Shown here: positions 2,839-44,708 of the stretch, one piece after another
Layout of the letters: each line of letters opens with the position of its first letter
Position numbering within the stretch: position 1 is the first letter of the stretch
Source: Candidatus Yanofskybacteria bacterium
Lineage (GTDB): Bacteria > Patescibacteriota > Minisyncoccia > 2-02-FULL-40-12 > GWA2-44-9
NCBI GenBank assembly: GCA_016185505.1
Contig: JACPNL010000009.1
Location: 1 to 57,854, forward strand
Direction of reading: 5' to 3'
DNA length: 57,854 nt
Made by a program: the position numbers and the translations under genes
The notes under the pieces: model-generated
Seen by the model: only the letters and a program-made list of their open reading frames with translations
Database searches by the model: none
What the model was told of the DNA's origin: nothing

Positions 2839-2892
2839 TTGGAAATTAATAACTTGCTTTTAGTCAAGTTTCTGGTTATACTCCGTCAACAT

Positions 2893-3963
2893 ATGGACTT
2901 AACCACATCACCCATAAAAACAATGAAGGACCTTCTGGCTAAGGAGGAGTTTTATCTACCGAAACCAGGAACCATACTGCAGGGCCAAATAATAAATGTC
3001 TCCAAAAGCAGCGTGATCATTGACCTTGGTACCGCCGGCATCGGCATAGTTTATCCGGGTGAATTCTACGACAATCCGGAAAGGATGAAAGCGCTGAAGC
3101 CCGGGGACACTGTCTCGGCAATGCTTGTAGAGATGGAGAACGAAGACGGTTATCGGGAGCTGTCTTTAAGGTCGGCCCAAATGACAACTGCCTGGCAGGA
3201 TATAAAAGAAAAGATGGACAAAGAAGAGATACTGATAACCACAGTCATCAATATAAATAAGGGTGGATTGATAGTTGAAGTTAGCGGAGTCCAGGGATTC
3301 TTGCCATTATCCCAGCTCTCTCCCGAACACTACCCCAAGATAGAGGGAGGCGATACAACCAAGATCGTTCAAGCCCTACAAAAATTCAAGGGACAGGAAT
3401 TAAAAGTAAAGATACTTGATTTTTCTGAATCAGAGAACAAGCTGATCGTTTCCGAGAAAGCGATACTGGAAGATCTTACAAAGGAAGAGCTCAAAAAGTT
3501 CAACGTCGGCGATATGGTGGACGGCACGATAACCGAAGTGACGGATTTCGGAGCTTTTGTAAAATTGAGCGACAACTTGGACGCTTTGATACACTCTTCG
3601 GAGATTGATTGGAAATTTATAGAAGACCCCAGAGCAGTTCTCCGTATCGGCGATAAAATAAAAGCTAAGATAATAAATCTAGACGGAGGCAGAGTTGCTC
3701 TCTCTCTAAAAGCCCTGAAACCCGATCCCTGGGAAACGGTTGAAGAAAAATTCCAGGTCGGACAGAAAGTCAGAGGCAAAGTCATCAAGGTCCGCTCAGG
3801 CGGCGCGTTTGTAGAACTGACTAGCGAAATCGTCGGATTCCTCCCCGCGATCGAATCGGGCGAAAAGAAACTTGAAGAAACAGTCAAAGTCGGCGAGGAA
3901 TACAATTTCGCCATCGTCAGTATTGACGCCAAAGATCACAAGATAGTTCTCACGCTGGAATAA
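2893..3963 (+). CDS. rpsA: 30S ribosomal protein S1-like (four S1/OB repeats)
   Basis: Repeated G.I..V..FGAFV-type S1 motifs (GTITEVTDFGAFVKL, GKVIKVRSGGAFVEL). The start is set at the first ATG (2893); the track ORF begins at TTG 2839. Confidence 0.8.
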   Translation: MDLTTSPIKTMKDLLAKEEFYLPKPGTILQGQIINVSKSSVIIDLGTAGIGIVYPGEFYDNPERMKALKPGDTVSAMLVEMENEDGYRELSLRSAQMTTAWQDIKEKMDKEEILITTVININKGGLIVEVSGVQGFLPLSQLSPEHYPKIEGGDTTKIVQALQKFKGQELKVKILDFSESENKLIVSEKAILEDLTKEELKKFNVGDMVDGTITEVTDFGAFVKLSDNLDALIHSSEIDWKFIEDPRAVLRIGDKIKAKIINLDGGRVALSLKALKPDPWETVEEKFQVGQKVRGKVIKVRSGGAFVELTSEIVGFLPAIESGEKKLEETVKVGEEYNFAIVSIDAKDHKIVLTLE

Positions 3964-4135
3964 AATCTCCAATCTCCAGAGTCTAAAACCCAAAACACAG
4001 GAACTAAAGCACAAAACACAGAAACCGAAACGTTTGTGTTTTCGGCAGTTTGTGTGCTGTGTTTTATTTGTGTTTTGTGGAATCTGTGCTTTGTGCTTTA
4101 AACTTTAAATTTTTTAGGATTTAGAGATTTTACAA
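3964..4135. repeat. long imperfect hairpin (aaaacacag / ctgtgtttt words) after rpsA
   Basis: aatctccaatctcc..cacaaaacac on the left is mirrored by gtgttttgtg..ggatttagagatt on the right. Confidence 0.55.
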
Positions 4136-4138
4136 AAG

Positions 4139-4167
4139 TTTGACTAAACTTTTGTAATGATGTATAA
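4139..4167 (+). promoter_or_regulatory. near-consensus sigma70 promoter with a palindrome around the -35
   Basis: TTGACT (4139-4144), 17-nt spacer, TATAAT (4162-4167). The -35 sits inside the inverted repeat tacaaaagtt..aacttttgta. Confidence 0.7.
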
Positions 4168-4540
4168 TCTGGACAGTCGTTAGTTCGTTAACCCCGACTC
4201 CGCCTAGGCGGGGCCACAACAAAGTCCTGCTTTCGGGTGGGCAAAGGAGACAATGTGGCCAAAACCACAGCTCCGACGCTTCCGGTCGGAGCCCCGACTG
4301 TCAACGTCGGGGTCGTCGCTACCCCAGGTACCATTCGGCACCTGGCTACGCTCGGGCCGAAAGTTCGGCTCGTGGTATTCAAGTTTTGGGTTCGGAGCGA
4401 ACTGGTGCCGGCCTGCATTCCCCGGCTGCCCATCAACAGGTCTGCTCAACACCAAGGGCGACTACGCATTCGTCGGCGCGAGAGTCGCCGGAGAAAAAAT
4501 CTCAACGAGATTCAAAAAGGGGAAGTCGGTTGACGTCAAG
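4168..4540 (+). ncRNA. GC-rich, heavily hairpinned ~370-nt leader / candidate ncRNA
   Basis: Consecutive stems are ccgc-ctag-gcgg, gtgg-ccaaaa-ccac, ctccgac-N6-gtcggag, ccccgac-N6-gtcgggg, ccaggt-N10-acctgg, cgggcc..ggctcg and ggcgac..gtcgcc. The in-frame translation here is W/R-rich and not protein-like. Confidence 0.4.
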
Positions 4541-4921
4541 ATGAGCGACGTGCGATTCACATTCGTTCATCGAAAGAGCATCAGCAACGCTCCTCCTCAC
4601 AAGAATTTTGTGGAGAGATTCAATCAGCTGGTCAACGCTTTCGTTGACTTTACCAAGTTGAATCTCTGGATGACGGAGGCGTATGTGAATCCGTATCTGA
4701 ACGAAGACGGCACCACCGGCAAGGGCAGTGTACTGATGTTGGATTGCGCCGGTCGCAAAGAAGCCGTCAAGCCGGATGGCAAGCCTGTGATGGCATATGA
4801 AGGTGGTCGAGAGAAGCTGGAAAACGGCTTCACGCAGGGCATTGGCCCGAAGGTTTCCATCTTGAACAAAGCCAGCGAGCTGAAACTCGCCGGCAAAAAG
4901 GTTCAGCTGGTATCACCGTAA
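4541..4921 (+). CDS. hypothetical protein, 126 aa (island cassette 1)
   Basis: First ATG in the protein-like part of the 4253..4921 ORF (MSDVRFTFVHRKS...). A weak purine-rich RBS (aaaggggaag) lies ~15 nt upstream. No family is recognised. Confidence 0.5.
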   Translation: MSDVRFTFVHRKSISNAPPHKNFVERFNQLVNAFVDFTKLNLWMTEAYVNPYLNEDGTTGKGSVLMLDCAGRKEAVKPDGKPVMAYEGGREKLENGFTQGIGPKVSILNKASELKLAGKKVQLVSP

Positions 4922-4958
4922 CCGCCGTATAACTAGCAATTGCTAGTTATACGGCGGT
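4921..4958. repeat. perfect 38-nt palindrome directly after the stop codon
   Basis: accgccgtataactagcaa|ttgctagttatacggcggt, centre GCAATTGC. Confidence 0.9.
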
Positions 4959-4988
4959 ATGAATATTTTGAGCGGACGATGTCCGCCA

Positions 4989-5008
4989 GCCCCGACCACG
5001 GTCGGGGC
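4989..5008 (+). terminator. GC hairpin gccccgac-cacg-gtcggggc
   Basis: 8-bp GC stem followed by a T-rich tract. It belongs to the ccccgac/gtcgggg hairpin family. Confidence 0.5.
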
Positions 5009-5034
5009 ATTCGTTTATTCACTTGCTTACAACT

Positions 5035-5068
5035 GTCTACAGATTCCGCAATTGCGGAATCTGTAGAC
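5035..5068. repeat. perfect 34-nt palindrome
   Basis: gtctacagattccgcaa|ttgcggaatctgtagac, with the same GCAATTGC centre as 4921-4958. Confidence 0.9.
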
Positions 5069-5096
5069 ACACTTCCCGCACATCCGACACAAACAC

Positions 5097-5124
5097 TTGA
5101 CAAAATTTGTGAGAGGAGTATAAT
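5097..5124 (+). promoter_or_regulatory. near-consensus sigma70 promoter
   Basis: TTGACA (5097-5102), 16-nt spacer, TATAAT (5119-5124). Confidence 0.7.
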
Positions 5125-5361
5125 GAAGGCAGAACATTAATACTAGGCGAGCAGAAAAGAGGTGACTTGAAGCCAATGTCGAAATGTCGATATATCGATA
5201 TTTTGGAGCCAAATCCCCTCTTTTCTGCAGTCCTGCTCCGTCTGGAAGCAGGCGGGGGAGGGGCCCGTCTCGTACGAAGTAGGACGCCCTAGGCGTCCGC
5301 AACTTCGTATCGGGATTCGTCAACCAACGTCAGTGCCCATTACGGGCGAAGGAGGCCAACC
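5125..5361 (+). promoter_or_regulatory. structured ~235-nt leader made of three long hairpins
   Basis: gcagaaaagagg (5151) pairs with cctcttttctgc (5217) around an atatcgatat core. cctgct..agcagg forms a second stem. acgaagt..acttcgt encloses ggacgcc-ctag-gcgtcc. The leader ends in the RBS gaaggagg (5348-5355). Confidence 0.5.
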
Positions 5362-6183
5362 ATGGCCAAGACCAAGAGCAGAGTGAAGAAGATGACGGCG
5401 ACAGAGGTTCCGTTTCCGACCAACGAGTTGTCGAACGTCGAGAAGGCGGACCTCGCGACGGCAACGGCCGCCGCCGAGACGACGACCAAGGACGGCGAGG
5501 CAAGCGATCGCTTGCCGTACCCCCCGCGAACCAAGGACGGCCAGGAAGCGTTCCTGGCGCTCGGGAAGTCCATCCCGAGCTGGCTCTGGGTCGCGCGAGC
5601 CCGAGCGCTCGGCCACTCGATGGCCGCGGACGAGGTGCGTGAGATCATCGCGTACGATGGACCGGAAGTGACCTGCACCGCGCCGAGCGGACAGTGCGCG
5701 TACCGGTTCCAGCCGGTGCGGATGGCCCACGTCGACCCCGCGACCGGGGCGCTCCAGACCGACGAGCGCGTCGTGTCGGAGTCGAACCCGGCCGGCATCG
5801 CGTACCGCGGCGCCTTCTTGGCGGTCCCTGTGGACCCCAAGAACCAGCACTCGAAGCTGCGGGTGCTCGGTCCGCTGTGTCAGCGTGACCAGCGTTCCCT
5901 CTCGGCGTCCTACAAGGATGCCGGGTGGTTCGTCAAGTCCTTCGGCAAGGCCGAGGCCGAGGCGTTCGTCGCGGCGACGAACGCCAAGAAGGATGCCGGA
6001 CGCGCGGCGTACCTCGCCCGCAAGGACGAGAACGCTCGGGCACTCGGCCTGGTGACCGAGGACGGGCAGCGCGTGGAAAGGGGCGGCGGACGGTTCCGCG
6101 GCAACCCCCACATGGCCACCGCCGGTCGTCAGGGTCGGCGGAACGCCGACCCGCGCGAGCGCAACATCGGGAACCGCGGCTAA
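5362..6183 (+). CDS. hypothetical protein, 273 aa, strikingly GC-rich (island cassette 2)
   Basis: AGGAGG RBS 7 nt upstream of the ATG. Third codon positions are almost all G/C in this frame. The C-terminus is Arg/Gly-rich. No family is recognised. Confidence 0.65.
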   Translation: MAKTKSRVKKMTATEVPFPTNELSNVEKADLATATAAAETTTKDGEASDRLPYPPRTKDGQEAFLALGKSIPSWLWVARARALGHSMAADEVREIIAYDGPEVTCTAPSGQCAYRFQPVRMAHVDPATGALQTDERVVSESNPAGIAYRGAFLAVPVDPKNQHSKLRVLGPLCQRDQRSLSASYKDAGWFVKSFGKAEAEAFVAATNAKKDAGRAAYLARKDENARALGLVTEDGQRVERGGGRFRGNPHMATAGRQGRRNADPRERNIGNRG

Positions 6184-6203
6184 CCCCGCGTTCCCGAGAG
6201 CAA

Positions 6204-6235
6204 CCCCTCACCTTTCGAGACCGAAAGGTGAGGGG
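6204..6235 (+). terminator. perfect 14-bp hairpin cccctcacctttcg-agac-cgaaaggtgagggg
   Basis: Read directly from the sequence. It is related to the hairpins at 7940 and 36651. Confidence 0.6.
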
Positions 6236-6241
6236 CACGTA

Positions 6242-6294
6242 CCCGGAAGGAGGGTGGAGGCACAACCTCCTCCCCTCCTCCGGGTCGTTTTTTT
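6242..6294 (+). terminator. Rho-independent-type terminator
   Basis: cccggaaggagggtggagg..cctcctcccctcctccggg stem followed by tcgttttttt. Confidence 0.7.
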
Positions 6295-6344
6295 AAGTAT
6301 TTGTTCAAGAGTTAAGAGTTCGTCAGAGAAGTTTTGTCCCCGAC

Positions 6345-6378
6345 CGAAATATAATAAGCATATGCTCATTATATTTCG
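6345..6378. promoter_or_regulatory. 34-nt near-perfect palindrome containing TATAAT on both strands (operator/promoter candidate)
   Basis: cgaaatataataagcat|atgctcattatatttcg with one mismatch, ~55 nt upstream of the GTG start at 6434. Confidence 0.4.
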
Positions 6379-6433
6379 ATGTAAGATTTTTCTGGTGAGT
6401 TCTTAAACAAAGCGTCAAAGGAGGGCGCTAAAC

Positions 6434-7912
6434 GTGAAAAGTGACAGGAACTGGTATCGCCAGCTTGGCGAGTACCGAAGAACGAAAGATGGACGAAAAA
6501 TCAGAGGCTTTATTGGCGCCACGATGCATTTGATCCGCCTTTGCGGAAAAAATATCGCCGTTGATTGCGGCATTGGATTCGATAAAAGTGATGAGATTCA
6601 GAAACAGTATGTGCCCGACGGCAACTGGCTGAACGGGACTCGTATTGATCTGATCATTCTCACCCATAAGCATTTGGATCACGTCGGCGCGCTTGTCCGA
6701 CTCGTGCATCATCATCCTGAAGCGCTGATTTTCATGTCAGCCAAGACATTTGAAGGCGCGCGTATCGCCATCGAGGACTCCCTGAATATCTGGCGTAAAG
6801 AAGCCGAGAACGCCCGGCGGAACGGCCTACCCATTCCCGAGCCGATCTTCACCGAGGAGATGGCTGACGCGTTCTATAACAATCCCAACCTGAAGGTGTT
6901 TGATGCACCCTACTGGCTTGACCCGCAGGAAGACCTGCGCGGACAGTGGCCGGGATGGGAGATGGGGTTCTACGATGCCGGCCACGATGTCGGTGCTGTA
7001 TCCACGTACATGCTTTTGCCGAATGGCAAGTATTTCTATCTGACCGGCGATGTAGCCAGTCACGATCAGGAAAACGCCCGTGGCGTGCTTCTGCCGCCGG
7101 ATAATTTTCTTGGCGACTTCTTTGACCGCCCAGGAACGATGGTTACCGAGGCAACCAACGGTGACCGCCGGATGGAAAAACCGCGCGAGCAGTTAGTCGA
7201 GGAAATTGGCCAATTTGCCAGAGAGGTTGATGCGAGAGGTGGCGTTCTTCTGGATGCCGTATTTGCCGGAACAAAAGCCGGCAACGACATGGTCATGTTC
7301 AACAACCTCGGCTACAAAGTTGTCGTTGACGGCCTTGCCCGCGATCATATCCGAGTTGAAGTGCCGGACATTGAGGAGCGGCTGAAGGACGGCCGAGTAT
7401 TCTTCATTGAAGAAGGTAAGAGTAAGGATAAGAAGGAGCTCGCCTGGAAACAGCGGGCCGAGTATGTGGCCGGTCTTCACGGCTTTGTACCCATCATCGC
7501 CCCTTCGGCGACGCTTGATCAGGGTTTCGCCGCATCGGCTTACGCGCCGGTGATACTTGAGGGCGAAAAGAATGCGGCGGTCTTCACTAGTCACATCTTT
7601 GACGATTCAACCACGCAAAGATTGTTCAACGTCAAGCGTGGCCGGACGATCAAGATGAAGAAGTTCGTCAACGGACGGCTCGAACCGATTCGAGTTAACG
7701 TCCGCTGTGACATTCGTCATTTTAACAGATCATCTCACGACTATCAGGACGGGCTGGTGGAGAGGGTTCGGCTCGCAAGGCCGGAGACGCTCATCGTCCA
7801 CCATTGCCCCGGCAAGGAATCGTTCAACGCCTTCGCCGAACGAGTGCATTCCCTGCCTCCCCCCCCGAAGAAACCGATCTGGGGACTGAATGGCAGAAAG
7901 ATATTCATCTAG
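6434..7912 (+). CDS. beta-CASP family metallo-beta-lactamase-fold nuclease (RNase J / CPSF73 / SNM1-like), 492 aa (island cassette 3)
   Basis: GTG start 8 nt after aaaggaggg. Motifs appear in order: THKHLDHVG (HxHxDH), DAGHDVG, LTGDVAS, VTEATNG (beta-CASP A), FTSHIF (B), LIVHHCPG (C). Confidence 0.75.
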   Translation: MKSDRNWYRQLGEYRRTKDGRKIRGFIGATMHLIRLCGKNIAVDCGIGFDKSDEIQKQYVPDGNWLNGTRIDLIILTHKHLDHVGALVRLVHHHPEALIFMSAKTFEGARIAIEDSLNIWRKEAENARRNGLPIPEPIFTEEMADAFYNNPNLKVFDAPYWLDPQEDLRGQWPGWEMGFYDAGHDVGAVSTYMLLPNGKYFYLTGDVASHDQENARGVLLPPDNFLGDFFDRPGTMVTEATNGDRRMEKPREQLVEEIGQFAREVDARGGVLLDAVFAGTKAGNDMVMFNNLGYKVVVDGLARDHIRVEVPDIEERLKDGRVFFIEEGKSKDKKELAWKQRAEYVAGLHGFVPIIAPSATLDQGFAASAYAPVILEGEKNAAVFTSHIFDDSTTQRLFNVKRGRTIKMKKFVNGRLEPIRVNVRCDIRHFNRSSHDYQDGLVERVRLARPETLIVHHCPGKESFNAFAERVHSLPPPPKKPIWGLNGRKIFI

Positions 7913-7939
7913 CATAAAATAGCGGTTTAGCCGCAATTC

Positions 7940-7978
7940 GTCCCTCACTTTTCGACAGAAAACAGAAAGGTGAGGGAC
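7940..7978 (+). terminator. hairpin gtccctcactttt..aaaggtgagggac followed by T-rich tract
   Basis: Read directly from the sequence. It is a paralogue of the 6204 hairpin. Confidence 0.6.
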
Positions 7979-7992
7979 TTTAAATTTTTAAA

Positions 7993-8022
7993 ACGAATAC
8001 GTAAACCGGTTTACGTATTCGT
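7993..8022. repeat. perfect 30-nt palindrome
   Basis: acgaatacgtaaacc|ggtttacgtattcgt. Confidence 0.9.
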
Positions 8023-8104
8023 TAAATCAGAATTATGCCCTCATATACCCATATACCATTATATAGGGATGTTTCTCGCGCATAACTTTACAAAACATAA
8101 AAGA

Positions 8105-8133
8105 TTGACATATAATGAAACCTATGTAATAAT
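8105..8133 (+). promoter_or_regulatory. sigma70-type promoter with extended -10
   Basis: TTGACA (8105-8110), 17-nt spacer ending in TGt, AATAAT (8128-8133). RBS aaggagg at 8144-8150. Confidence 0.6.
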
Positions 8134-8157
8134 ACAGACAAGAAAGGAGGCCGAGAA

Positions 8158-9024
8158 ATGGCCAGACGATGGGGAAAGCCCAAATCAGTTGATTGGAGAG
8201 GACAGCCGTCTTCTCCGACATCATTTTGTATCTTTCCAATAAAAGACGAGGCGTTCTCTCCGGAGTTGAAGATATTTCTAGTTTATAACCGCGCCGATAA
8301 AGGCAGAAATAAGCCCTTGGACGAACTTTTGGGCTTTGGTGCTAGACAGGGCGGCATAAAAAAGGGCAAGCCGGCCGCCTACGGAATGCCCGGGGGCGGG
8401 CAAAATCCGGAATGGCTCGAGACCACTGAAGGCGCCGCCATTAGAGAGGGTGGTAATGAGAGCGGGATAAGGGTCACTAGGGCTCGTTTGATCCCTATTC
8501 CGGAGAAGAAAAACAAGGCCCTGATATTGGACAAGAAAACCGACGAACGGACTCGTCCAGAGATAATGTATGCCGATGGGCAACAAGTTCACGTCGAACT
8601 GATGCCGAACGAGAAACTTCTCTTAAACCCAATGAATTATTATCTCGCCGACGTTGACTGGTTCAATTCAAGGGTCAGAGAATTCCTTGTTGGTCTTAAG
8701 AACGACCTTATCGCCGAAGGCAAATGTACGGCGGAAGACATCGCCCAATTCGGGATAAGTATTAATACCCTTGCACGAGAAGAGCTTCTTGCTCTCGGAG
8801 TTGACGAGGAAGAGGTGGGCAAGAAAGATGAGCCCGAAGAATTATGTGAAATCGGCGGGTTCGCCCTTCTGCCGGTAAGTTTGCTCCGGTGGATGTGGGA
8901 GAACAAACGATTCTACTTGAATCCCGAAGAAGACCGAGAAAATCCGCTAGAACCGACTACGTATGTATATTACAGCCACGTCAAACGAATCCTGGAAGGT
9001 CTCGATATCATGGGCGTTGCATAG
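8158..9024 (+). CDS. hypothetical protein with degenerate Nudix-like box, 288 aa (island cassette 4)
   Basis: GGGQNPE-WLETTEGAAI-REGGNESGI resembles GX5EX7REUXEEXGU, but with a 10-residue spacer and N in place of the first catalytic E. Strong RBS. Confidence 0.4.
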   Translation: MARRWGKPKSVDWRGQPSSPTSFCIFPIKDEAFSPELKIFLVYNRADKGRNKPLDELLGFGARQGGIKKGKPAAYGMPGGGQNPEWLETTEGAAIREGGNESGIRVTRARLIPIPEKKNKALILDKKTDERTRPEIMYADGQQVHVELMPNEKLLLNPMNYYLADVDWFNSRVREFLVGLKNDLIAEGKCTAEDIAQFGISINTLAREELLALGVDEEEVGKKDEPEELCEIGGFALLPVSLLRWMWENKRFYLNPEEDRENPLEPTTYVYYSHVKRILEGLDIMGVA

Positions 9025-9046
9025 TCCGATCACTTTTTATATAGGC

Positions 9047-9072
9047 GAGGGGCTCGCAGCGCCCCTTTTTTT
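9047..9072 (+). terminator. Rho-independent terminator
   Basis: gaggggc-tcgcagc-gcccct stem followed by a T7 run. Confidence 0.75.
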
Positions 9073-9106
9073 AACAAACTAAGTTGTGATAAGATAGGAC
9101 ATTAAT

Positions 9107-10912
9107 ATGAAAGTAGCCCTAAAATACATTCTAATCATTTTTGTTTCGCTACTAGTACTGGCGGCTTTTGTATCTTTGTTCCAGTCGCCGGACAAAACAG
9201 TTGTTCCCCTTTCGGAATTAGTGAGTAAAATAAACGCCGGAGAGGTAGAGAGTATTACAGTCAAAGAGGACTTGCTTGAAATCAAACTCGCCGGCGGCGA
9301 ATTATTGGAGACAAAGAAAGAAACTTCTGTCTCCGCTTTTGAAACACTCGCCAACCTGGGCGCCGAACAGGATAAACTTTCGGCCGTTTCGGTTGAGGTA
9401 AAAGACGCCAGCGGATTTGCAGTAATTGTCAGATCAGTACTGCCGATTGTTCTGCCTTTTCTTTTAATATTACTCATCTTTTGGTTTATGTTCTCAAAGG
9501 CCCAACAGGGTTCAATGCAGGCGCTGTCTTTCGGCAAATCAAAAGCGCGGTTGGCAAACTTGGACGGCAAAAAGAAAGTTATGTTCAAAGACGTAGCCGG
9601 ACTGATAGAGGCCAAGGAAGAAATATCTGAAGTGGTTGAATTTTTGAAAGATCCGCAGAAATTCCACAAGCTCGGCGCAAGAATACCGCGAGGTATTATG
9701 CTTGTTGGTTCTCCGGGAACAGGCAAAACACTCCTTGCCAAAGCTGTCGCCAATGAGGCCAACGTCCCCTTTTATTTCGTCTCCGGTTCGGAATTCGTGG
9801 AGATGTTTGTCGGCGTAGGCGCCTCGAGAGTAAAAGACACCTTCGAACTAGCAAAGAAAACCGCTCCGTCAATAATTTTTGTTGACGAAATAGACGCAGT
9901 CGGCAGACACCGAGGCGCCGGTCTTGGCGGAGGCCATGACGAAAGAGAACAAACTTTGAACCAAATACTGGTTGAGATGGACGGTTTTGACACCAAAGAC
10001 AGCGTAATTATTATGGCGGCAACTAACCGTCCGGATATATTGGATCCCGCGCTTCTGCGTCCGGGCCGTTTTGACAGAAGAGTGATACTGGACGAGCCGT
10101 CAATGAGCGACAGAGAAGCGATACTGAAAATCCACGCGCTTGAAAAACCCCTTGCTAAAGAAGTCAACTTAAAAGTGGTGGCCGAAAGAACGCCCGGATT
10201 CTCCGGAGCCGATCTGGCAAACCTAGTTAACGAAGCGGCGATACTGGCCGCCAGAAAAAATCAGAGAGAGGTAAGGCAAATCGATCTGTTCCAATCAATA
10301 GAAAAAGTTATTCTGGGTCCCGAGAGGCGAAGCCATATTTTATCTAAAAAAGAAAAAGAGATAACCGCATACCATGAGGCCGGACACGCTCTAGTCGCCG
10401 TATCGCTTCCCCACTCCGATCCGGTACACAAGGTTTCTATTGTATCTCGGGGACGAGCGGGTGGATACACCTTGAAGTTGCCGAGCGAAGACAAACACAT
10501 GAGGTCTAAGGCAGAGTTTGAATCAGAACTAGCTGTGCTTCTTGGCGGCTACGCCGCCGAGAAAAGCATATTCAAAGACACAACTACTGGAGCAACTAAC
10601 GATCTGAAAGTTGCCTCTGACCTTGCTCGAAAGATGGTCACTCAATTCGGCATGTCGGACAAACTTGGCCCAATAACCTATGGGGAGAAAGACGAGCTGG
10701 TGTTTCTCGGCAAAGAAATGGGCCACACCAAAAATTACTCTGAAACAATCGCTTTTCAAATTGACAGCGAAGTTAAAAAACTGGTATCAAAGGGCTTGGC
10801 AACAGCCAAGAAAGTGCTCACTCAAAAATTAGAAACTCTCCATAAGATAGCCAGGGAACTCATAACCAAAGAAACTCTCGAGCAGAAGGAATTCTACGCA
10901 CTGGTGGGCTAG
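9107..10912 (+). CDS. ftsH: ATP-dependent zinc metalloprotease FtsH
   Basis: N-terminal TM helix, Walker A GSPGTGKT, second region of homology, HEAGH zinc motif. Confidence 0.95.
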
Positions 10913-11084
10913 AAGTTAGGAATTAGGAATTAGAAAGTTAGCCAAAAAAGTTGTCGTATTTATACTACGATCGTGAAATAAACACGATTCAGCGCTCCCC
11001 CGTCGTTTCCGCTTTACGCCCGCCTCGCTATAGTAAGCAGGAGTAGAAATTAACCCCATAAAATGCTAGCATAACAGATAAATT

Positions 11085-11156
11085 GGGCCTGTAGTTTAAC
11101 GGTCAAAACGGGATTCTTATAAAATTCAGAAGATGGTTCGACTCCATCCAGGCCCA
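11085..11156 (+). tRNA. tRNA-Ile (anticodon UAU)
   Basis: Cloverleaf GGGCCTG/CAGGCCC, D stem GTTT/AAAC, anticodon stem GGATT/AATTC with loop CTTATAA, T arm GATGG-TTCGACT-CCATC. Confidence 0.75.
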
Positions 11157-11191
11157 CTGCTTCGCTAAAGCTTCACAGTGCAAAGCGCGTT

Positions 11192-11263
11192 GGGCGATTA
11201 GCTCAGTGGTAGAGCGTCTCGTTTACACCGAGAAGGCCGGGGGCTCAATCCCTCCATCGCCCA
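11192..11263 (+). tRNA. tRNA-Val (anticodon UAC)
   Basis: GGGCGAT/ATCGCCC acceptor, GCTC/GAGC D stem, loop TTTACAC. The T loop is CTCAATC (non-canonical). Confidence 0.8.
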
Positions 11264-11267
11264 CTAT

Positions 11268-11731
11268 ATGCCGCACATTCACGAAAAGATTGACTTTACT
11301 GTAAGTGTTTTGTTGTACACAAAAATCGTGTCTTACTGAGGAAACACGATAAATATGCAATTTGGATAGGAGTCGGCGGTCATATAGAGTTAGAGGAAGA
11401 CCCCAACCAAGCCGCCCTAAGGGAGGTCAAAGAAGAAGTGGGGCTTGAAGTAACCTTAATCGGTAGCAAACCCGTTGGTGAACATCCTGGCAAAGCAGTA
11501 AACCTTATACCGCCAGAATTTATAAATAGACATTTTGTTGAAGAAAAACACGAACATATAGATTTAATATATTTCGCAACTTCAGTCACAGATAACGTCA
11601 TTCCTGAACACGGTAATGATGAGTGGGCTTGGCTTTCAAAAGATGAATTAGAAGATCCAAAATATAGCTTGAGTGAAACAATGAAACTATACGCAAAAAC
11701 TGCGCTTACTAAAGTAAATAAGAAATCTTAA
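11268..11731 (+). pseudogene. Nudix hydrolase interrupted by a -1 frame change at an A5 run
   Basis: ATG 11268 opens MPHIHEKIDFTVSVLLYTK and then reaches a stop at 11337. The -1 frame continues NRVLLRKHDKYAIWIGVGGHIELEEDPNQAALREVKEEVGL (canonical Nudix box) through to 11731. That frame has no start codon before the Nudix box. Confidence 0.7.
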
Positions 11732-11734
11732 ACT

Positions 11735-12079
11735 ATGGGAGAACTAAAAGAATTTAAGCCAAAACCCTTCGACGCGACTCCGAGCAAGCCGGAAAAACCG
11801 GCCAGAGTTATCGGCGACGTTGAATCGGCAAGAAAGAAAAAACAGCCGTATGAAGCAAAGATAGACACGAGCTCAGTGTTAGCCGACGCTCTTGAGCTTG
11901 TCCGAGAAGGCCAGCTTACAGACGAAAAAATTGATGAACTTATCACAATTACAGAAAACGAAAAAACACTTTTAAAAGTTGTATCTGGACTATTTGAACG
12001 GTTAAGAACATACGACGAGGAAGTTGAAGAACTTCGCGCTTTAATTAAAAAGTTAGAAGAGAAAGATGCCTCAAAATAA
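11735..12079 (+). CDS. hypothetical coiled-coil protein, 114 aa
   Basis: ORF track entry; charged, helical-looking sequence. It is tightly packed with its neighbours, and its stop overlaps the next start. Confidence 0.5.
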   Translation: MGELKEFKPKPFDATPSKPEKPARVIGDVESARKKKQPYEAKIDTSSVLADALELVREGQLTDEKIDELITITENEKTLLKVVSGLFERLRTYDEEVEELRALIKKLEEKDASK

Positions 12080-13312: not shown

Positions 13313-13399
13313 GCGCGGGTGCTGAAACTAGAAGACAGGCCAGCTTGAGGTGCTGGTGTCCGCAAGGACGTGCAGGTGCAATTCCTGTCCCGCGCACCA
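13313..13399 (+). tRNA. tRNA-Leu (anticodon GAG), class II with long variable arm, CCA encoded
   Basis: GCGCGGG/CCCGCGC acceptor, TG-CTG-AAACTAGAAGA-CAG D arm, CCAGC-TTGAGGT-GCTGG, variable arm TGTCC-GCAA-GGACGT, T arm GCAGG-TGCAATT-CCTGT, then A-CCA. Confidence 0.8.
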
Positions 13400-13401
13400 G
13401 C

Positions 13402-13478
13402 GGGCGCGTAGCTCAATTGGCTAGAGCACTTTCTTGACGTGAAAGGGGTTCCCAGTTCGAGTCTGGGCGCGCCCACCA
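13402..13478 (+). tRNA. tRNA-Val (anticodon GAC), CCA encoded
   Basis: GGGCGCG/CGCGCCC, GCTC/GAGC, CTTTC-TTGACGT-GAAAG, CCCAG-TTCGAGT-CTGGG, then A-CCA. Confidence 0.9.
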
Positions 13479-13518: not shown

Positions 13519-13883
13519 TGCCGCGGGGGTGAATCGAACACCCAACGCCATCCTCTTCCAAGGATAAATTTGGACTATATCATCACCCCGTGATTGCGGA
13601 GCAATTTTACGGGGGGTCGGGCGCTTCGAACGTAAAGTAGAAAAACTACCACGTCCTACTCCCTTTCGGGATAGTCTCTACACCTGCCTACGCCAATGCT
13701 ACGGCAGGCAAGCCTTCCTCTTTTGTTTGAGAATAAGCTTGCTTGCAATCCGAAGCTTTAGCGAAGGATTGGCTCGGGATTGTCCTTGCGGAGTTTCCCC
13801 GAATTCACCCAATTTTTCAATCCGCCTTACGACGGAAAGCCCCAAAGATTTAGGGATGCGCTCTACCATTGAGCTACCGCGGC
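13519..13883 (-). tRNA. tRNA-Phe (anticodon GAA) interrupted in the anticodon loop by a group I intron
   Basis: 5' exon 13883-13852: GCCGCGG TA GCTC AATGGTA GAGC G CATCC CT. 3' exon 13558-13519: GAAGA GGATG GCGTT GGGTG TTCGATT CACCC CCGCGGC A. Joined, they give a canonical 72-nt cloverleaf. Confidence 0.8.
13559..13851 (-). ncRNA. group I intron (~293 nt, IC3-like)
   Basis: P1 hairpin CCCU^AA-AUCU-UUGGGG has a U.G pair at the splice site. R-like element GGUGUAGAGACUAU (plus-strand coordinates 13671-13687). S-like element GAUAUAGUCC (13567-13585). A terminal G lies just before the 3' exon. Confidence 0.8.
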
Positions 13884-14019
13884 AATACTAACTTAGAGAT
13901 AATAGCATTTTAAAACGGATTTTTCAACCTTATCTTTACATCAAATGAGTTATCCCCACCCACTTGTCCACATTTCGATTTTAAAACTGAACCAACGTGC
14001 TATACTTATAGGTATAGCT

Positions 14020-14706
14020 ATGAGAAACGATAAATTTAAGGCCTACAAACTAAGGATGGCGGGACGAAGTTATACTGAAATTAATCGTCTTTTAAACGTG
14101 CCGAAAAGCACTCTGTCAGGATGGTTTTCAACCTTGGACATTCCCCCGGAAGCAAAAGAAAGAATAAGCAAGAGAGTATATGAAAAGTCAGTTCTTGCTC
14201 TTGTCAAAAGGAATAAACAACAAACTGAACAGGCACAAATAAGAGCCCGAGAAACAAGAGCTCTCGCGATAAAAGAAGTTGGTTCTTTAAGTAATAGAGA
14301 TCTTTTCATTGCGGGTATTTCTTTATATTGGGCAGAAGGGCATAAGAAACCGATCTATTTAAATGGTAAAGTAAGAACTCACCATCCCATATCCTTAACA
14401 AATTCTGACCCAAAAATGGTAGCCCTGTTCATGAGATTTTTACGTGAAGTTTGTAGTGTTAAGGATGATAAAATATCTGTGGGCATCAGGTTTTTTGAAC
14501 ATCAGGATCCAGTATACCTATTGGATTTTTGGCAAAAAATTGTTAGGATACCCTCTAGCAGATTCCAAAAGGTTCTACAAACAATTAGTATCTCCAGCAA
14601 AAGGATTAGACCTTTTAACTCTCTCCCTTTTGGTGTTGTTCAGATTAGAGTTGGAGATACTCCTCTCTTCCATAAAATAATGGGTTGGATAGACGGGATG
14701 AGTTAA
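14020..14706 (+). CDS. LAGLIDADG-like homing endonuclease with N-terminal HTH (free-standing)
   Basis: YTEINRLLNVPKSTLSGW looks like an HTH. LFIAGISLYWAEGHK resembles a single LAGLIDADG motif. The start is set at ATG 14020 (the track ORF begins at 13945). Confidence 0.55.
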   Translation: MRNDKFKAYKLRMAGRSYTEINRLLNVPKSTLSGWFSTLDIPPEAKERISKRVYEKSVLALVKRNKQQTEQAQIRARETRALAIKEVGSLSNRDLFIAGISLYWAEGHKKPIYLNGKVRTHHPISLTNSDPKMVALFMRFLREVCSVKDDKISVGIRFFEHQDPVYLLDFWQKIVRIPSSRFQKVLQTISISSKRIRPFNSLPFGVVQIRVGDTPLFHKIMGWIDGMS

Positions 14707-43438: not shown

Positions 43439-43534
43439 CAAATGTAAAATGTAAATATCAAAATTAAAAATTACAATTCAAAATTTTAAAATTTTACACT
43501 GTCATTTTGCATTTTGATTTTTGAATTTTAAATT
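43439..43534. repeat. AT-rich hairpin, 'aaatgtaaaatgtaaatatcaaaat..' family
   Basis: Nearly identical to 44148-44245. Related copies occur at 23874-24030 and 28784-28858. Confidence 0.8.
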
Positions 43535-44144
43535 ATTTCGATGGATTATACAGTTCATAATAAAGTTTTTTCAGCTCCTCGTCTTCCATGGGTTTTATTT
43601 TCAAACCAAGGCCAATGAGGCCGCCATAGATTAGATCCGCTCTTTGTAATAGCTGGTTTTTGTATGTATTGAATTGCTCGTCGGTCAGTTCTTTAGGAAC
43701 GACTTTTGGATTGATTAAACCCTTTAAACTCTCAATCAGTCCGGATACTTCCGGTTTTTCAAAAATATAAAACGGTATTATAACGTAAAACTTCTTGGAC
43801 ATGATATTGGACAAGCTGGAGAGTTCTTTTATAAATCTGGAATATTCCGAGACCTGGATTTTAAAGAGTTCATTTTCGGTTGATTCCGTTATCCCGTCAA
43901 CTGTTTTTAAGTACGGCTCTATGTTTAACTCTCTTGAGCTGACAACTATTTGAAGCGGGAAATCAGCCGAATTCAGAAACCTTTGGAATCCCTGAAGTAT
44001 CGCGACTTGTTCATCTGCCGACCGCAATTCAAAGTTTATGGATGAAACCTCAAGAACCATTCGGAGGGAACCGTTTTTCAATATCACGACACCTTCTCGT
44101 ATGTCGGAAATGGGGATTAAGTTTTCGGTGGAATGGTTAGGCAT
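43533..44144 (-). CDS. hypothetical protein resembling the N-terminal domain of VirB4/TraC-type ATPases (split gene?)
   Basis: The IPISDIREGVVILKNGSLRMVLEVSSINFELRS pattern sits directly upstream of the ATPase ORF. Confidence 0.4.
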   Translation of the reverse strand: MPNHSTENLIPISDIREGVVILKNGSLRMVLEVSSINFELRSADEQVAILQGFQRFLNSADFPLQIVVSSRELNIEPYLKTVDGITESTENELFKIQVSEYSRFIKELSSLSNIMSKKFYVIIPFYIFEKPEVSGLIESLKGLINPKVVPKELTDEQFNTYKNQLLQRADLIYGGLIGLGLKIKPMEDEELKKLYYELYNPSK

Positions 44145-44147
44145 ATT

Positions 44148-44245
44148 TCAAATGTAAAATGTAAATATCAAAATGAAAAATTACAATTCAAAATTTTAAA
44201 ATTTTACACTATCATTTTGCACTTTGATTTTTGAATTTTAAATTA
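44148..44245. repeat. AT-rich hairpin, aaatgtaaaatgtaaat family
   Basis: The right arm encodes the C-terminus and stop of the PrgI-like ORF. Confidence 0.8.
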
Positions 44246-44652: not shown

Positions 44653-44681
44653 TTGACTTTTAGGCAGTTTTGGTGTATAAT
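44653..44681 (+). promoter_or_regulatory. consensus sigma70 promoter overlapped by a 16-nt perfect palindrome
   Basis: TTGACT, 17-nt spacer, TATAAT. The palindrome agtcaacatgttgact (44643-44658) covers the -35. A second TTGACA lies at 44634. Confidence 0.65.
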
Positions 44682-44708
44682 TAAGGGTATAGGAGGTTGT
44701 TCATATTC

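Follow-up and report, generated by a model that had tools for sequence, protein, structure and literature searches.

A conserved GC-rich four-gene block between rpsA and ftsH of Candidatus Yanofskybacteria: a candidate RNA-metabolism locus with two novel proteins and a structured 5′UTR

Introduction

In Bacillus subtilis, 5′-end-dependent mRNA decay involves RppH and RNase J, a Nudix RNA pyrophosphohydrolase and a beta-CASP ribonuclease. A pair of genes that, to judge from the encoded proteins, is probably comparable occurs in a four-gene block (O1 to O4) located between rpsA and ftsH of a Candidatus Yanofskybacteria bacterium. By contrast to the RppH/RNase J system, however, the beta-CASP protein O3 belongs to the CPSF73/aCPSF/TTHA0252 type and lacks the C-terminal domain of RNase J, the Nudix and beta-CASP genes are adjacent, and two novel genes lie alongside. 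Compared to BsRppH, the putative Nudix protein O4 has a large insertion, is extended at the C-terminus and shows a degenerate EE pair. Closest to O3 in profile searches are aCPSF1/FttA and CPSF73/IntS11 (E 1e-34 to 1e-27), which match the whole MBL and beta-CASP core; unlike aCPSF1/FttA, O3 is bacterial and devoid of N-terminal KH domains.

With respect to its architecture, the block resembles phage 'morons' and integron cassettes, i.e. stacked single genes of odd composition with their own promoter and terminator, even though O3 has no consensus promoter. On the other hand, prophage, integrase and attC sites are missing, and the block is syntenic across a class-level bacterial clade, beside core genes. 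Defence islands with MBL-fold nucleases (Lamassu LmuA, DRT-associated MBL) likewise combine an MBL nuclease with small orphans at a variable locus, but O3 matches their MBL motif of approximately 60 residues only weakly (E 8e-5 to 2e-2), is of the beta-CASP RNase type and is not accompanied by SMC, RT or NTPase partners. Finally, the autoregulatory leaders of rne, pnp and r-protein genes are, like the 5′UTR of O2, long, structured and situated in front of a gene for a putative RNA-binding protein, and they contain SD-like and anti-SD-like strands as does the O2 leader, which differs from them in having no Rfam match and in being better conserved than its ORF.

Results

The window, i.e. the whole stretch of DNA analysed (57,854 nt), contains at 4.1–9.1 kb four plus-strand ORFs between the genes for a 374-aa S1 protein and FtsH, an arrangement already given in the preliminary description and borne out by the ORF list. 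The upstream core flank rpsA (short S1 protein; 2839–3963, plus strand) was assigned by Pfam S1 matches on orthologues in syntenic loci, the downstream core flank ftsH (9107–10912, plus strand) by AAA and Peptidase_M41 matches on orthologues; among relatives, the products are 70–86% and 58–94% identical, respectively. Across the block the GC content per kb is 0.51–0.62 compared to approximately 0.43 elsewhere in the window, with a maximum of 0.70–0.735 (200-nt windows) inside ORF2. Gene by gene, it amounts to 0.55, 0.69, 0.54 and 0.50 for O1 to O4. Referred to the 44 other ORFs of the window (GC3 0.452 ± 0.060), GC3 z-scores of 7.2 (ORF2), 3.5 (ORF1) and 3.0 (ORF3) were obtained, while the composition of ORF4 is ordinary (GC 0.495, GC3 z = 1.3). 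The earlier statement that all four ORFs are G+C-rich therefore applies to O1–O3, with an extreme in ORF2 (69% GC, GC3 0.88), but not to ORF4, and sliding GC and GC3 values likewise revealed an atypical composition of O1–O3 only. Logan assemblies from three independent runs were 100% identical over positions 5040–8022, thus this stretch is not chimeric. A further GC-rich unit of promoter, ORF and terminator lies elsewhere in the window (44655–45235).

The order SBP-methyltransferase-gyrA-x-MBL(-) / S1-O1-O2-O3-O4-FtsH-...-RluD-L19 was seen in approximately ten distinct O3-anchored lineages, five Yanofskybacteria MAGs among them, further loci being near-identical copies. In Ca. Yanofskybacteria and allied Paceibacteria, CPR bacteria of very small size, S1-O1-O2-O3-O4-FtsH recurs and the GC pattern, the promoters and the terminators recur with it, and relatives whose FtsH is 58–94% identical have the same genes, order and junction. 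The block was found in all recovered relatives with an S1 identity of at least 78% as well as in several at 67–73%. Co-occurrence of the four homologues is thus conserved among relatives; together with the order of O1, the O2-slot gene, O3 and O4, it holds where O3 is just 33–40% identical. L025 and the Terrybacteria MAG L027 have only O3 and a GC-rich neighbour in common with the block. The O2-slot gene shows a GC content of 0.60–0.69 and a GC3 of 0.76–0.88 across lineages, with the exception of L022 (GC 0.55, GC3 0.58); in L016 it is GC-rich, yet the flanks have 33% GC. The block had been called compositionally foreign, and relatives with the same genes at this junction but a host-like composition had been named as one observation that would contradict it. 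The same genes were indeed found, whereas their composition is not host-like, so that an understanding of the term as recent import has to be abandoned. As judged from these comparisons, the block genes are intrinsically GC-rich and have been maintained in this state, their composition being no footprint of recent transfer.

Neither an integrase, a transposase nor boundary direct repeats were detected at the block, as noticed before, and the search for a tRNA target or mobility genes at this site was negative, too. A recently acquired genomic island was rejected because the block is present at the junction in close relatives and mobility genes and repeats are missing. An integron cassette array was also rejected, since there is no integrase and three genes have their own promoters, O3 possessing a short leader; as hairpins, the block has terminators or perfect palindromes, which vary from lineage to lineage.

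The rpsA-ftsH junction is a true variable spot. Between S1 and FtsH, the spacer comprises 12 nt in L048 and does not exceed 113 nt in five other lineages. Relative to this widespread adjacency the block is an insertion and, as had been proposed, wedged into a conserved neighbourhood. Among 31 S1-anchored contigs, the junction is empty in six and harbours different cargo in most others; this cargo is often GC-rich, with Arg/Gly-tailed proteins and beta-CASP genes recurring in it. Junctions that are empty or differently occupied were seen only where the S1 identity is approximately 70% or less. Within the block, O2 and O3 alleles occur in the combinations A1 (window and L010), B1 (L004), B2 (L012) and C2 (L023). 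In L012, O3 is 54% identical compared to 94.5% for FtsH, and codon differences at identical amino acids are 0.24–0.26 where the allele type is shared versus 0.45–0.52 in the flanks. Selfish genes have entered spacers of relatives, namely GIY-YIG in L004 and 23S_rRNA_IVP in L010. The fast evolution and shuffling of O2/O3 and the turnover of cargo are more reminiscent of a contested locus than of simple housekeeping.

Twelve promoter-like sites were counted in the block compared to 3.3 ± 1.8 in shuffles, including sites with 12/12 matches at 5097 and 11/12 at 4140, 8087 and 8105. The three near-consensus sigma70 promoters reported earlier (4139, 5097, 8105) could be recovered with scores of 11/12, 12/12 and 11/12, as could AGGAGG-type ribosome-binding sites and long hairpins following the stop codons. 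When the palindromes of the 58-kb window, perfect or nearly so, are ranked by length, four of the top seven fall in the 5 kb of the block. The O1 promoter (TTGACT-N17-TATAAT, 4140–4168, plus strand, 11/12) retains its TTGAC-type -35 box at the corresponding site of L010, L004 and L022, where the -10 box is degenerate. The O1-O2 spacer (4921–5069) comprises two perfect palindromes (4921–4958 and 5034–5069) and a G+C hairpin with a T-rich tail (4989–5008); the hairpin pair GCGGAC..GTCCGC and GCCCCGAC..GTCGGGGC is kept in L012 and L023. Both hexamers of the O2 promoter (TTGACA-N16-TATAAT, 5097–5124, plus strand, 12/12) are invariant in six aligned loci, and the promoter was found in 13 of 13 leader-bearing loci. 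The O2 terminator region (6204–6294, plus strand) consists of a hairpin at 6204–6235 and a second one at 6242–6284 that precedes a T-run and is kept with compensatory changes in six loci. Further downstream, a near-perfect palindrome, CGAAATATAAT..ATTATATTTCG, with 95% complementarity is located at 6345–6378. Upstream of ORF3 there is no consensus promoter, just a short leader, GTGAGTTCTTAAACA...GCGTCAAAGGAGGGCGC (6397–6433, plus strand), which is kept in five of six aligned loci and presents the ribosome-binding site within the loop of a hairpin ahead of the GTG start codon. O3 is followed (7941–8023) by a terminator hairpin (7941–7977) and a perfect palindrome (7992–8023); L010 has both elements, while the other relatives have a different hairpin in the same place. 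The O4 promoter (TTGACA-N17-TG-AATAAT, 8105–8133, plus strand, 11/12), of which TTGAC and TATGnAATAATA are invariant in six loci, and an intrinsic terminator (9047–9067, plus strand) border the last gene. Hence, the notion that each ORF is its own transcription unit is supported by the terminators and by the promoters of O1, O2 and O4; O3 has its conserved short leader.

The 126-aa ORF1 (4541–4921, plus strand), which has its own ATG, is the C-terminal part of a gene for approximately 220 aa that in the window lacks approximately 80 nt and is shifted in frame. Its N-terminal fragment (4255–4533, plus strand), recognized by translation and by alignment with relatives, starts with GTG (VAKTT...) and is out of frame with the remainder past the deletion. 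Since the alignment revealed one open frame throughout and 3-periodic conservation in relatives, the long structured leader ascribed to ORF1 is mostly dead coding sequence. The O1 family consists of clade-specific proteins of approximately 210 aa, of which full-length homologues exist; a profile search yielded 267 clusters, and none of 40 homologues gave a Pfam match. An AF2 model of an intact orthologue reached a pLDDT of 90.7 and has no structural neighbour in PDB or BFVD. One distant homologue (L034), again GC-rich, stands alone as a cassette within a glycosyltransferase locus that is unrelated.

O2 (5362–6183, plus strand) encodes a 273-aa orphan and is a genuine coding sequence as deduced from its GC1/GC2/GC3 values of 0.66/0.53/0.88. 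The protein is rich in Ala, Arg and Gly, has an Arg/Gly-rich C-terminal tail and is hypervariable across lineages. Its AF2 model was poor (pLDDT 59) and gave no fold match; relatives of known function were detected neither for O1 nor for O2. The structured 5′UTR (5131–5361, plus strand), defined by folding and covariation, contains a long helix P1, GCAGAAAAGAGG.../...CCTCTTTTCTGC (core 5153–5226), with a variable apical insert. In 13 distinct lineages, P1 has a length of 14–27 bp and extensions of differing sequence. Past P1 there are more hairpins, the last and small one (GCCC..GGGC) directly 5′ of the ribosome-binding site. The leader folds with an MFE of -109.9 kcal/mol (z = -7.8) and its helices covary across lineages; RNAalifold and pair counts gave 94% paired compared to 41–54% in slid controls, nine pairs show double changes and 0 of 500 shuffles were equally good. 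Accordingly, the long structured leader described for the orphan ORF2 is a real, conserved 5′UTR. No Rfam match was obtained at the gathering threshold in the window, nor at E<=1 in the region 3900–9200. In L019 and L016, promoter and leader of the O2 slot are kept while the ORF has diverged past recognition. The pyrimidine-rich strand of the 5′UTR has two alternative potential partners, the upstream purine-rich strand or downstream Shine-Dalgarno-like sequences.

O3 (6434–7912, plus strand; 492 aa) matched Pfam Lactamase_B (7e-9) and, below threshold, RMMBL, and matches to Beta-Casp and RMMBL were obtained on its relatives. Beta-CASP enzymes are defined by MBL motifs 1–4 (including HxHxDH) and motifs A (D/E), B (H) and C (H for RNA, V for DNA), all of which are present in O3 with a His in motif C, the RNA type. 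The residues H78xH80xD82H83, H184, D206, E239, H435 and H457 show no variation among 24 homologues. Profile searches against PDB gave archaeal CPSF (1e-34), CPSF73 (1e-28), IntS11 and TTHA0252 (1e-22), the best solved relatives being aCPSF, FttA, CPSF73 and IntS11. RNase J was rejected, as its structures align at query residues ~8–100 only (E 6e-11 to 1e-4), and so was aCPSF1/FttA, whose two N-terminal KH domains are missing in O3, because the alignment to 2xr1 begins at residue 187 of this structure and at residue 9 of O3. By these motif and profile criteria, O3 is an intact beta-CASP ribonuclease of the CPSF73/aCPSF type, which substantiates its previous assignment as a beta-CASP MBL nuclease. 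A canonical RNase J is already contained in a published Yanofskyibacterium bin (PMC10936435, Table S2), and therefore O3 would be an extra nuclease and not the only one of the cell.

O4 (8158–9024, plus strand) encodes a 288-aa protein of probable Nudix fold, putatively RppH-like, which contains an insertion and is extended at the C-terminus. The window protein alone scored 13.9 bits against Pfam NUDIX, below the threshold of 21.1, but 14 of 14 orthologues match NUDIX (PF00293; best 2.6e-10). For the family profile, the best PDB match was the B. subtilis RNA pyrophosphohydrolase 4jzu (BsRppH; E = 7.8e-8), which spans only approximately 70 residues around the Nudix box. G76, G80, E97, E101 and G103 are invariant in the family. 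Nudix hydrolases are defined by the box GX5EX7REUXEEXGU and the Nudix fold; here, the window protein reads REGGNE, Asn replacing the first Glu of the 'EE' pair. O4, described before as a degenerate Nudix-like protein, is probably a Nudix protein and putatively RppH-like, with B. subtilis RppH as its closest solved relative. In L050, a fusion of ribosomal protein S21 and Nudix occupies the same S1-FtsH slot, which ties the Nudix gene of this slot to the ribosome or mRNA.

Discussion

On balance, we lean slightly towards the view that the block is ancient, specific to its lineage and concerned with RNA metabolism, two of its proteins being novel, and that it was inserted long ago at the tight rpsA-ftsH junction and has since been inherited with occasional allele swapping between lineages. 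The pairing of Nudix and beta-CASP is functionally coherent. O4, if RppH-like, would convert 5′-triphosphate RNA ends to monophosphate, whereupon O3 may cut or digest the RNA, both enzymes forming a putative pair for 5′-end-dependent RNA processing or decay. O1 and O2 would be clade-specific partners, most plausibly RNA-binding or regulatory, and the four proteins may act jointly. O2 would be controlled via its structured 5′UTR, presumably by a switch between alternative pairings. Against this reading count the disruption of O1 in the window genome, the Asn in the Nudix box of its O4, the short extent of the RppH match, the canonical RNase J of the Yanofskyibacterium bin, the failure to detect relatives of known function for O1 and O2, and the allele shuffling and cargo turnover described above; moreover, the separate transcription units give no hint of tight co-regulation among O1–O4.

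The preliminary description recognized the profile of a defence or conflict island. A conflict or host-interaction system, either anti-phage or a weapon/immunity set of parasitic bacteria, fixed at a hot spot, seems unlikely to us, but it is kept as a candidate in view of the O2/O3 allele shuffling across lineages and the turnover of junction cargo. Nuclease and Nudix protein would then be effectors, the hypervariable O2 and O1 sensors or specificity factors. Defence systems often combine a nuclease with a nucleotide hydrolase, and the variable junction (empty in 6/31 S1-anchored contigs, other cargo in most of the rest), the constant O2-slot promoter and leader in front of a diverging ORF (L019, L016), the recombining allele types with their discordant identities in L012 and the lower codon differences among same-allele lineages are all in line with it. 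However, O1, O2 and O4 gave no matches in PADLOC-DB v2, and matches of O3 to defence and phage families (PADLOC, PHROGs) are limited to weak ones to its generic MBL motif (LmuA 8e-5, approximately 60 residues). Toxin, NTPase, sensor or methylase domains were not found either, the block lies, in fixed order and single copy, beside core genes in every recovered relative with S1 at 78% or above, O3 and O4 stem from RNA-processing families, and the S21-Nudix fusion resides in the same slot elsewhere. With these families and without mobility genes, the defence reading is unsupported, and no named system that the block would match was found, as had been anticipated. Highly doubtful is a special form of it, an RNA-targeting conflict or host-manipulation locus with conserved promoter and leader, an interchangeable O2 slot, a CPSF-like RNase, Nudix and O1, whose AU-poor coding sequences would have been selected to escape AU-directed RNA cleavage by the system itself or a rival.

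It is also improbable, in our opinion, that the genes have no joint function and are self-contained 'moron'-like cassettes which gathered singly at an intergenic site that tolerates insertions and have been inherited from then on. Their individual terminators and differing GC contents would fit this, as would the promoters except for O3, the stand-alone O1 homologue of L034, the similar unit at 44655–45235, the GIY-YIG and 23S_rRNA_IVP insertions in spacers and the different neighbours of O3 in L025 and L027. It is opposed by the order and co-occurrence kept at O3 identities of 33–40%, by the coherence of the enzyme pair and by the fact that phage or plasmid relatives were not found. That the block was recently acquired from a GC-rich donor, or was joined to the contig from such a source by faulty assembly, is scarcely conceivable; raised GC and GC3 would agree with such an origin, but the same block, junctions and GC profile occur in many independent assemblies and lineages, mobility genes and boundary repeats are missing, and the conserved promoters follow the consensus of the host itself. 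Odd composition and insulated cassettes alone thus do not indicate recent horizontal transfer or defence.

Understood as an ancient RNA-metabolism block, the locus adds two protein families without known relatives, of which O1 has a confidently predicted fold unmatched in PDB or BFVD, and a new covarying 5′UTR motif, the O2 leader, suited to the study of riboregulation. The O2-slot gene, with a GC3 near 0.8–0.9 in genomes of 33–45% GC over a long divergence, is a natural test case for GC-biased gene conversion versus selection on mRNA composition. CPR/Patescibacteria represent a large share of bacterial diversity, and to our knowledge their RNA metabolism is essentially unstudied. For these bacteria, the block is a clade-wide candidate RNA-processing module.

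Organization and composition of the block

Four open reading frames (O1 to O4), all on the plus strand, were called in the window between a short S1 gene (rpsA, 2839-3963) and ftsH (9107-10912), as the preliminary description had stated; that description turned out to be largely right. The G+C content of the block amounts to 0.51-0.62 per kb, compared to about 0.43 for the remainder of the 58-kb window, and reaches its maximum (0.70-0.735 in 200-nt windows) in the interior of O2. GC3 was set against that of another 44 ORFs in the window (0.452 ± 0.060), and z-scores of 7.2, 3.5, 3.0 and 1.3 were obtained for O2, O1, O3 and O4, respectively. Hence, the distinct composition ascribed to all four genes holds for the first three but not for O4. 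In the stretch 5040-8022, Logan contigs assembled for three sequencing runs show 100% identity; they end exactly at palindromes, demonstrating that the cassettes are contiguous in nature. A search at the boundaries gave no convincing direct repeats, which agrees with the first reading. A recent transfer or a chimera is ruled out by synteny in many assemblies. The spacer between S1 and O1 (3983-4100) contains tandem repeats of 21 nt (CTAAAACCCAAAACACAGGAA, two copies) and 34 nt (TTTGTGTTTT..., two copies), which are mutually reverse-complementary, so that a long inverted repeat, though an imperfect one, lies 3' of the S1 stop.

The orphan proteins O1 and O2

The view of ORF1 as a gene of 126 aa preceded by a long leader has to be revised. 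The O1 homologues of relatives comprise 207-275 aa as called, in a single frame spanning the 'leader' of the window, and a nucleotide alignment with relatives revealed third-position variation in this region; its 3-periodic conservation also rules out a large structured RNA. Compared to all relatives, about 80 nt are missing in the window, by which the frame is shifted. The gene is thereby split into an N-terminal piece (4255-4533, plus strand; GTG start, VAKTT...) and a C-terminal piece on the same strand, which restarts after the frameshift from the ATG at 4541. As an independent check, other records were searched for the 126-aa and the 222-aa product, and neither was found; the deletion may therefore be an assembly error. 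Two further short forms (P0102 and P0104) occur in the family.

A sensitive search yielded 40 O1 homologues, and a profile search gave 267 clusters (50% identity). Apart from a few shorter fragments, the members listed are nearly all single-domain proteins of about 190-250 aa. Those that were checked are unnamed, and Pfam gave no significant match. For an intact orthologue, AlphaFold gave a model with a pLDDT of 90.7 and a pTM of 0.86, for which no neighbour was found in PDB or BFVD (best E-values 0.35 and 0.036, TM <0.2). A distant member (profile E=3e-14) was detected in L034 (8001-8651, plus strand), where it stands by itself in a polysaccharide locus, with GT4 glycosyltransferase genes on either side. 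This gene has a G+C content of 0.57 (vs 0.44-0.47), its own TTGACA promoter and hairpins.

ORF2, with GC1/GC2/GC3 values of 0.66/0.53/0.88 and C or G at the end of 89% of its codons, bears the signature of genuine coding sequence exposed to strong GC pressure; a large structured RNA is ruled out by this periodicity together with conservation at the protein level. The O2 family was found in this clade only. Its N- and C-termini are conserved, the tail is rich in Arg and Gly and the centre is highly divergent; the structure model was poor and gave no fold match. For both O1 and O2, Foldseek searches of PDB and BFVD, PDB profile searches and Pfam analysis of all family members revealed nothing significant, so that the two orphans recognized earlier remain orphans. 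Weak similarities to SSB/OB-like and RGG-box (REF2) proteins were dismissed as compositional or non-significant.

The leader of O2

The long structured leader proposed for O2 is a real RNA element whose helices covary across lineages. The RNA between its predicted start near 5131 and the ATG (5362) folds at -109.9 kcal/mol (z=-7.8); no matching Rfam family was found. Leaders were compared with the help of a regex search, by tracing their helices and by counting pairs. A long helix, P1, occurs in 13 distinct lineages and is formed by GCAGAAAAGAGG/CCTCTTTTCTGC in close relatives and by YTAGGAAAnAGC/GCTCTTTCCTAR in distant ones. P1 measures 14-27 bp and encloses a variable insert; beyond its core, the sequences are wholly different yet complementary. 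For the eight distant leaders, RNAalifold added two hairpins beyond P1. In this set, 94% of the cells were paired, compared to 41-54% with slid partners, double changes occurred in nine pairs (controls ≤4), and none of 500 shuffles was as good. Downstream, the purine-rich 5' strand of P1 is repeated (GGAAGAGC or GGGAGGG), and this repeat might pair alternatively with the CCUCUUUUCU strand. The pyrimidine strand CCUCUUUU has a further complementary sequence in the ribosome-binding site (AAAGGAGG). The downstream repeat and this second complementarity make a translational switch plausible. The leader is more conserved than the ORF behind it; in locus L019 it has been kept in front of an ORF without detectable similarity to the O2 family.

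Transcription signals

A consensus scan identified a promoter matching at 12 of 12 positions (5097) and sites matching at 11 of 12 (4140, 8087 and 8105), and the region contains 12 promoter-like sites, compared to 3.3 ± 1.8 in shuffles. Terminator-like hairpins and long perfect palindromes lie 3' of the ORF stops. If all perfect or near-perfect palindromes in the window are ranked by length, four of the top seven fall in the block. The O2 promoter hexamers are invariant in all six aligned loci and were found in 13 of 13 leader-bearing loci. Likewise, six loci share an unchanged O4 promoter (TTGAC...TATGnAATAATA). As to O1, L010, L004 and L022 have kept a -35 box of the TTGAC type in the corresponding place; their -10 box is degenerate. 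In the aligned loci, the O2 terminator is retained via compensatory changes. O3 has a short, conserved leader with the ribosome-binding site in a hairpin loop 5' of the GTG start. This conservation of promoters, O2 terminator and leaders indicates that the architecture of four insulated cassettes, as originally proposed, is real and ancient.

A hairpin of the type CCCCTCACCTTTC-loop-GAAAGGTGAGGGG was found at 6204-6235 and 7941-7977, and also in L004 (about 8140-8175) and upstream of O2 in L029. As it follows more than one gene and occurs in more than one genome, it may represent a terminator element that is repeated and dispersed. Moreover, a 17-nt similarity (82%) joins the first transcribed bases of O2 (5126-5142, AAGGCAGAACATTAATA) and the bases directly 5' of the ftsH ATG (9091-9107, AAGATAGGACATTAATA); it may be due to chance or reflect a duplicated promoter or 5' end.

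The enzymes O3 and O4

In 24 O3 homologues, HxHxDH, H184, D206, E239 of motif A, H435 of motif B and H457 of motif C are invariant; O3 is thus assigned to the beta-CASP nucleases as an intact member. A motif C His marks the RNA-enzyme state in the beta-CASP family. Best profile matches were archaeal CPSF/FttA (1e-34 to 1e-27), CPSF73, IntS11 and TTHA0252 of T. thermophilus, while the match to RNase J is limited to the first ~80 residues; unlike aCPSF1, O3 has no KH domains. The O4 protein of the window alone is below the Nudix threshold, but all 14 orthologues match PF00293 (best 2.6e-10), with no variation at the positions G, G, E(RE), E and G of the Nudix box. The best solved match of the family profile is the B. 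subtilis RNA pyrophosphohydrolase RppH (4jzu, 7.8e-8).

Conservation of the block in relatives

On all contigs that are long enough, the homologues of O3 (33-85% identity) share one gene context: SBP-methyltransferase-gyrA-x-MBL(-) / S1-O1-O2-O3-O4-FtsH-...-RluD-L19. A scan of species-representative genomes detected O3 in five Candidatus Yanofskybacteria MAGs, one Terrybacteria MAG and other Paceibacteria/Patescibacteria. In L025 and in L027, the Terrybacteria MAG, what is shared is limited to O3 and a neighbouring gene rich in GC, and their order differs. By tblastn, O1, O2, O3 and O4 were found in order in closer lineages and O1, O3 and O4 in distant ones; FtsH identity across the syntenic loci ranges from 58 to 94%.

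Three close relatives have G+C contents of 0.54-0.58 (O1), 0.52-0.54 (O3) and 0.48-0.50 (O4). The gene in the O2 slot shows values of 0.60-0.69 (GC3 0.76-0.88) in all lineages but L022 (0.55, GC3 0.58), and even in L016, although its flanks have 33% GC. Since 24-55% of the identical-amino-acid codons differ between lineages, this GC-richness is being maintained and not merely retained, which rules out a recent acquisition. Of the finding named at the outset as evidence against a foreign island, one half was thus made: relatives carry the same genes at the same junction, but with a composition that is not host-like.

Low-GC genes of selfish type are inserted in spacers of the block, a GIY-YIG endonuclease gene between O1 and O2 of a Yanofskybacteria MAG (L004, 8201-8494; GC 0.33) and a 23S_rRNA_IVP-family gene between S1 and O1 of another such MAG (L010, 4283-4645; GC 0.36). 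Two AT-rich lineages (L016, 12489-13175; L026, 2757-3398) possess an extra GC-rich (0.66) gene between O4 and ftsH, whose basic, histone-H1-like product is rich in Lys, Ala and Pro.

A variable junction

The rpsA-ftsH junction is a variable spot. An S1-anchored metagenome scan, independent of the block, gave 80 loci, 31 of which contained both S1 and FtsH. S1 abuts FtsH in six of the 31 (L048 with a 12-nt spacer; L062, L071, L074, L083 and L084 with gaps ≤113 nt), three have the four-gene block (L041, L047, L065) and one the Terrybacteria-type arrangement (L096). The others harbor different cargo of 0.3-5.6 kb, often GC-richer than the flanks (e.g., 0.49 vs 0.43, 0.55 vs 0.46 and 0.58 vs 0.50). 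Proteins with Arg/Gly tails recur (L050, L053, L112), and minus-strand beta-CASP genes occur in L046 and L063. In L050 the four-gene block is absent and the junction is occupied by a 262-aa fusion of ribosomal protein S21 and Nudix (9219-10007, plus strand; Pfam S21 1.7e-12, NUDIX 3.1e-9); the same gap contains a GC-rich minus-strand gene (10968-12035) for a protein with a long RGG tract. Where the junction is empty or filled differently, the S1 of the lineage shares no more than about 70% identity with that of the window, whereas all recovered relatives with an S1 identity of at least 78% possess the block.

Alleles have been shuffled within the block: at least three types of O2 and two of O3 were distinguished, in the O2/O3 combinations A1 (window and L010), B1 (L004), B2 (L012) and C2 (L023). 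L012 and the window are only 54% identical in O3 but 94.5% in FtsH. Lineages sharing an allele type differ in 0.24-0.26 of the identical-amino-acid codons, compared to 0.45-0.52 in their flanks. The O2 of L023 most resembles alleles from distant lineages (L017, 4e-47, compared to 1e-8 for the window).

Other features of the window

Outside the block, a second insulated GC-rich cassette lies at 44655-45235 (plus strand), between TraG/VirD4-like (41659-43410) and TrbL/VirB6-like (45749-47908) genes. It comprises a promoter (TTGACT-N17-(TG)TATAAT), the RBS AGGAGG, an ORF from about 44710 (GC 0.54, GC3 0.64, z=3.0; no Pfam match) and a G+C hairpin with a T-run. The ORF is not a paralogue of O1 (hhalign probability 0.2%). 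Two near-identical AT-rich palindromic elements of ~95 nt (43441-43534 and 44151-44244; arms of 50 nt, 78-80% complementary) flank a 203-aa ORF (43533-44144, minus strand) without Pfam match. A group I intron (13549-13861, minus strand; Rfam, 68 bits, full length) directly follows tRNA-Leu(GAG) and tRNA-Val(GAC) on the opposite strand (13313-13478, plus) and neighbours a 253-aa ORF (13945-14706, plus; GC 0.38) without Pfam matches. At 11085-11157 (plus strand), a tRNA-Ile with the anticodon TAT (UAU) is encoded; most bacteria have a lysidine-modified CAU tRNA instead.

Possible functions of the block

The best-supported reading is that of an ancient, lineage-specific block, inserted at the permissive rpsA-ftsH junction and concerned with RNA. 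The RppH-like Nudix protein O4 and the CPSF73-type beta-CASP RNase O3 could constitute a coherent pair for 5'-end-dependent processing or decay, by analogy with RppH and RNase J, which set the precedent for such a pair in B. subtilis; O1 and O2 might be their clade-specific partners. The context also fits, since the block adjoins S1 and elsewhere the same slot is filled by the S21-Nudix fusion.

A plain housekeeping role is less compatible with the turnover of the locus and the exchange of alleles. In addition, Table S2 of a study on a Yanofskyibacterium bin contains a canonical RNase J (PMC10936435), which would make O3 an extra enzyme. This bin, for which a metatranscriptome has been published, lacks ftsH, and among the entries retrieved none matched the block (PMC10936435). 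The RNase J and the turnover with allele exchange are the reason why two other explanations are kept, both regarded as rather unlikely. One is a conflict or host-interaction system, as turnover and allele exchange would suit a contested function. However, the foreign defence island originally envisaged is not supported; the block is old and syntenic, and PADLOC was negative for defence-system membership: in PADLOC and PHROG, O1 to O4 were unmatched except for the generic MBL motif of O3. Viral-contig scans with O3 and with O4 were both empty, and like the PHROGs and the BFVD fold search they gave nothing in favour of a viral origin. The other explanation, a stack of unrelated self-contained cassettes, is doubtful to a similar degree. 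It is supported by the distant O1 homologue, which in the glycosyltransferase locus of L034 likewise stands alone and is rich in GC, and by the similar unit at 44655-45235.

There are three candidate causes of the persistent GC-richness: a recombination hot spot with biased gene conversion, selection favouring mRNA poor in AU, or a GC-rich pool from which the genes have repeatedly been replaced. The enzyme families of O3 and O4 are already known. By contrast, a limited text search found no literature, and no Rfam or Pfam entry exists, for the four-gene architecture, the two orphan families, the covarying leader and the long-lived GC anomaly, all of which appear to be undescribed. One of these families, O1, has a confidently predicted fold that matches nothing in the libraries searched.
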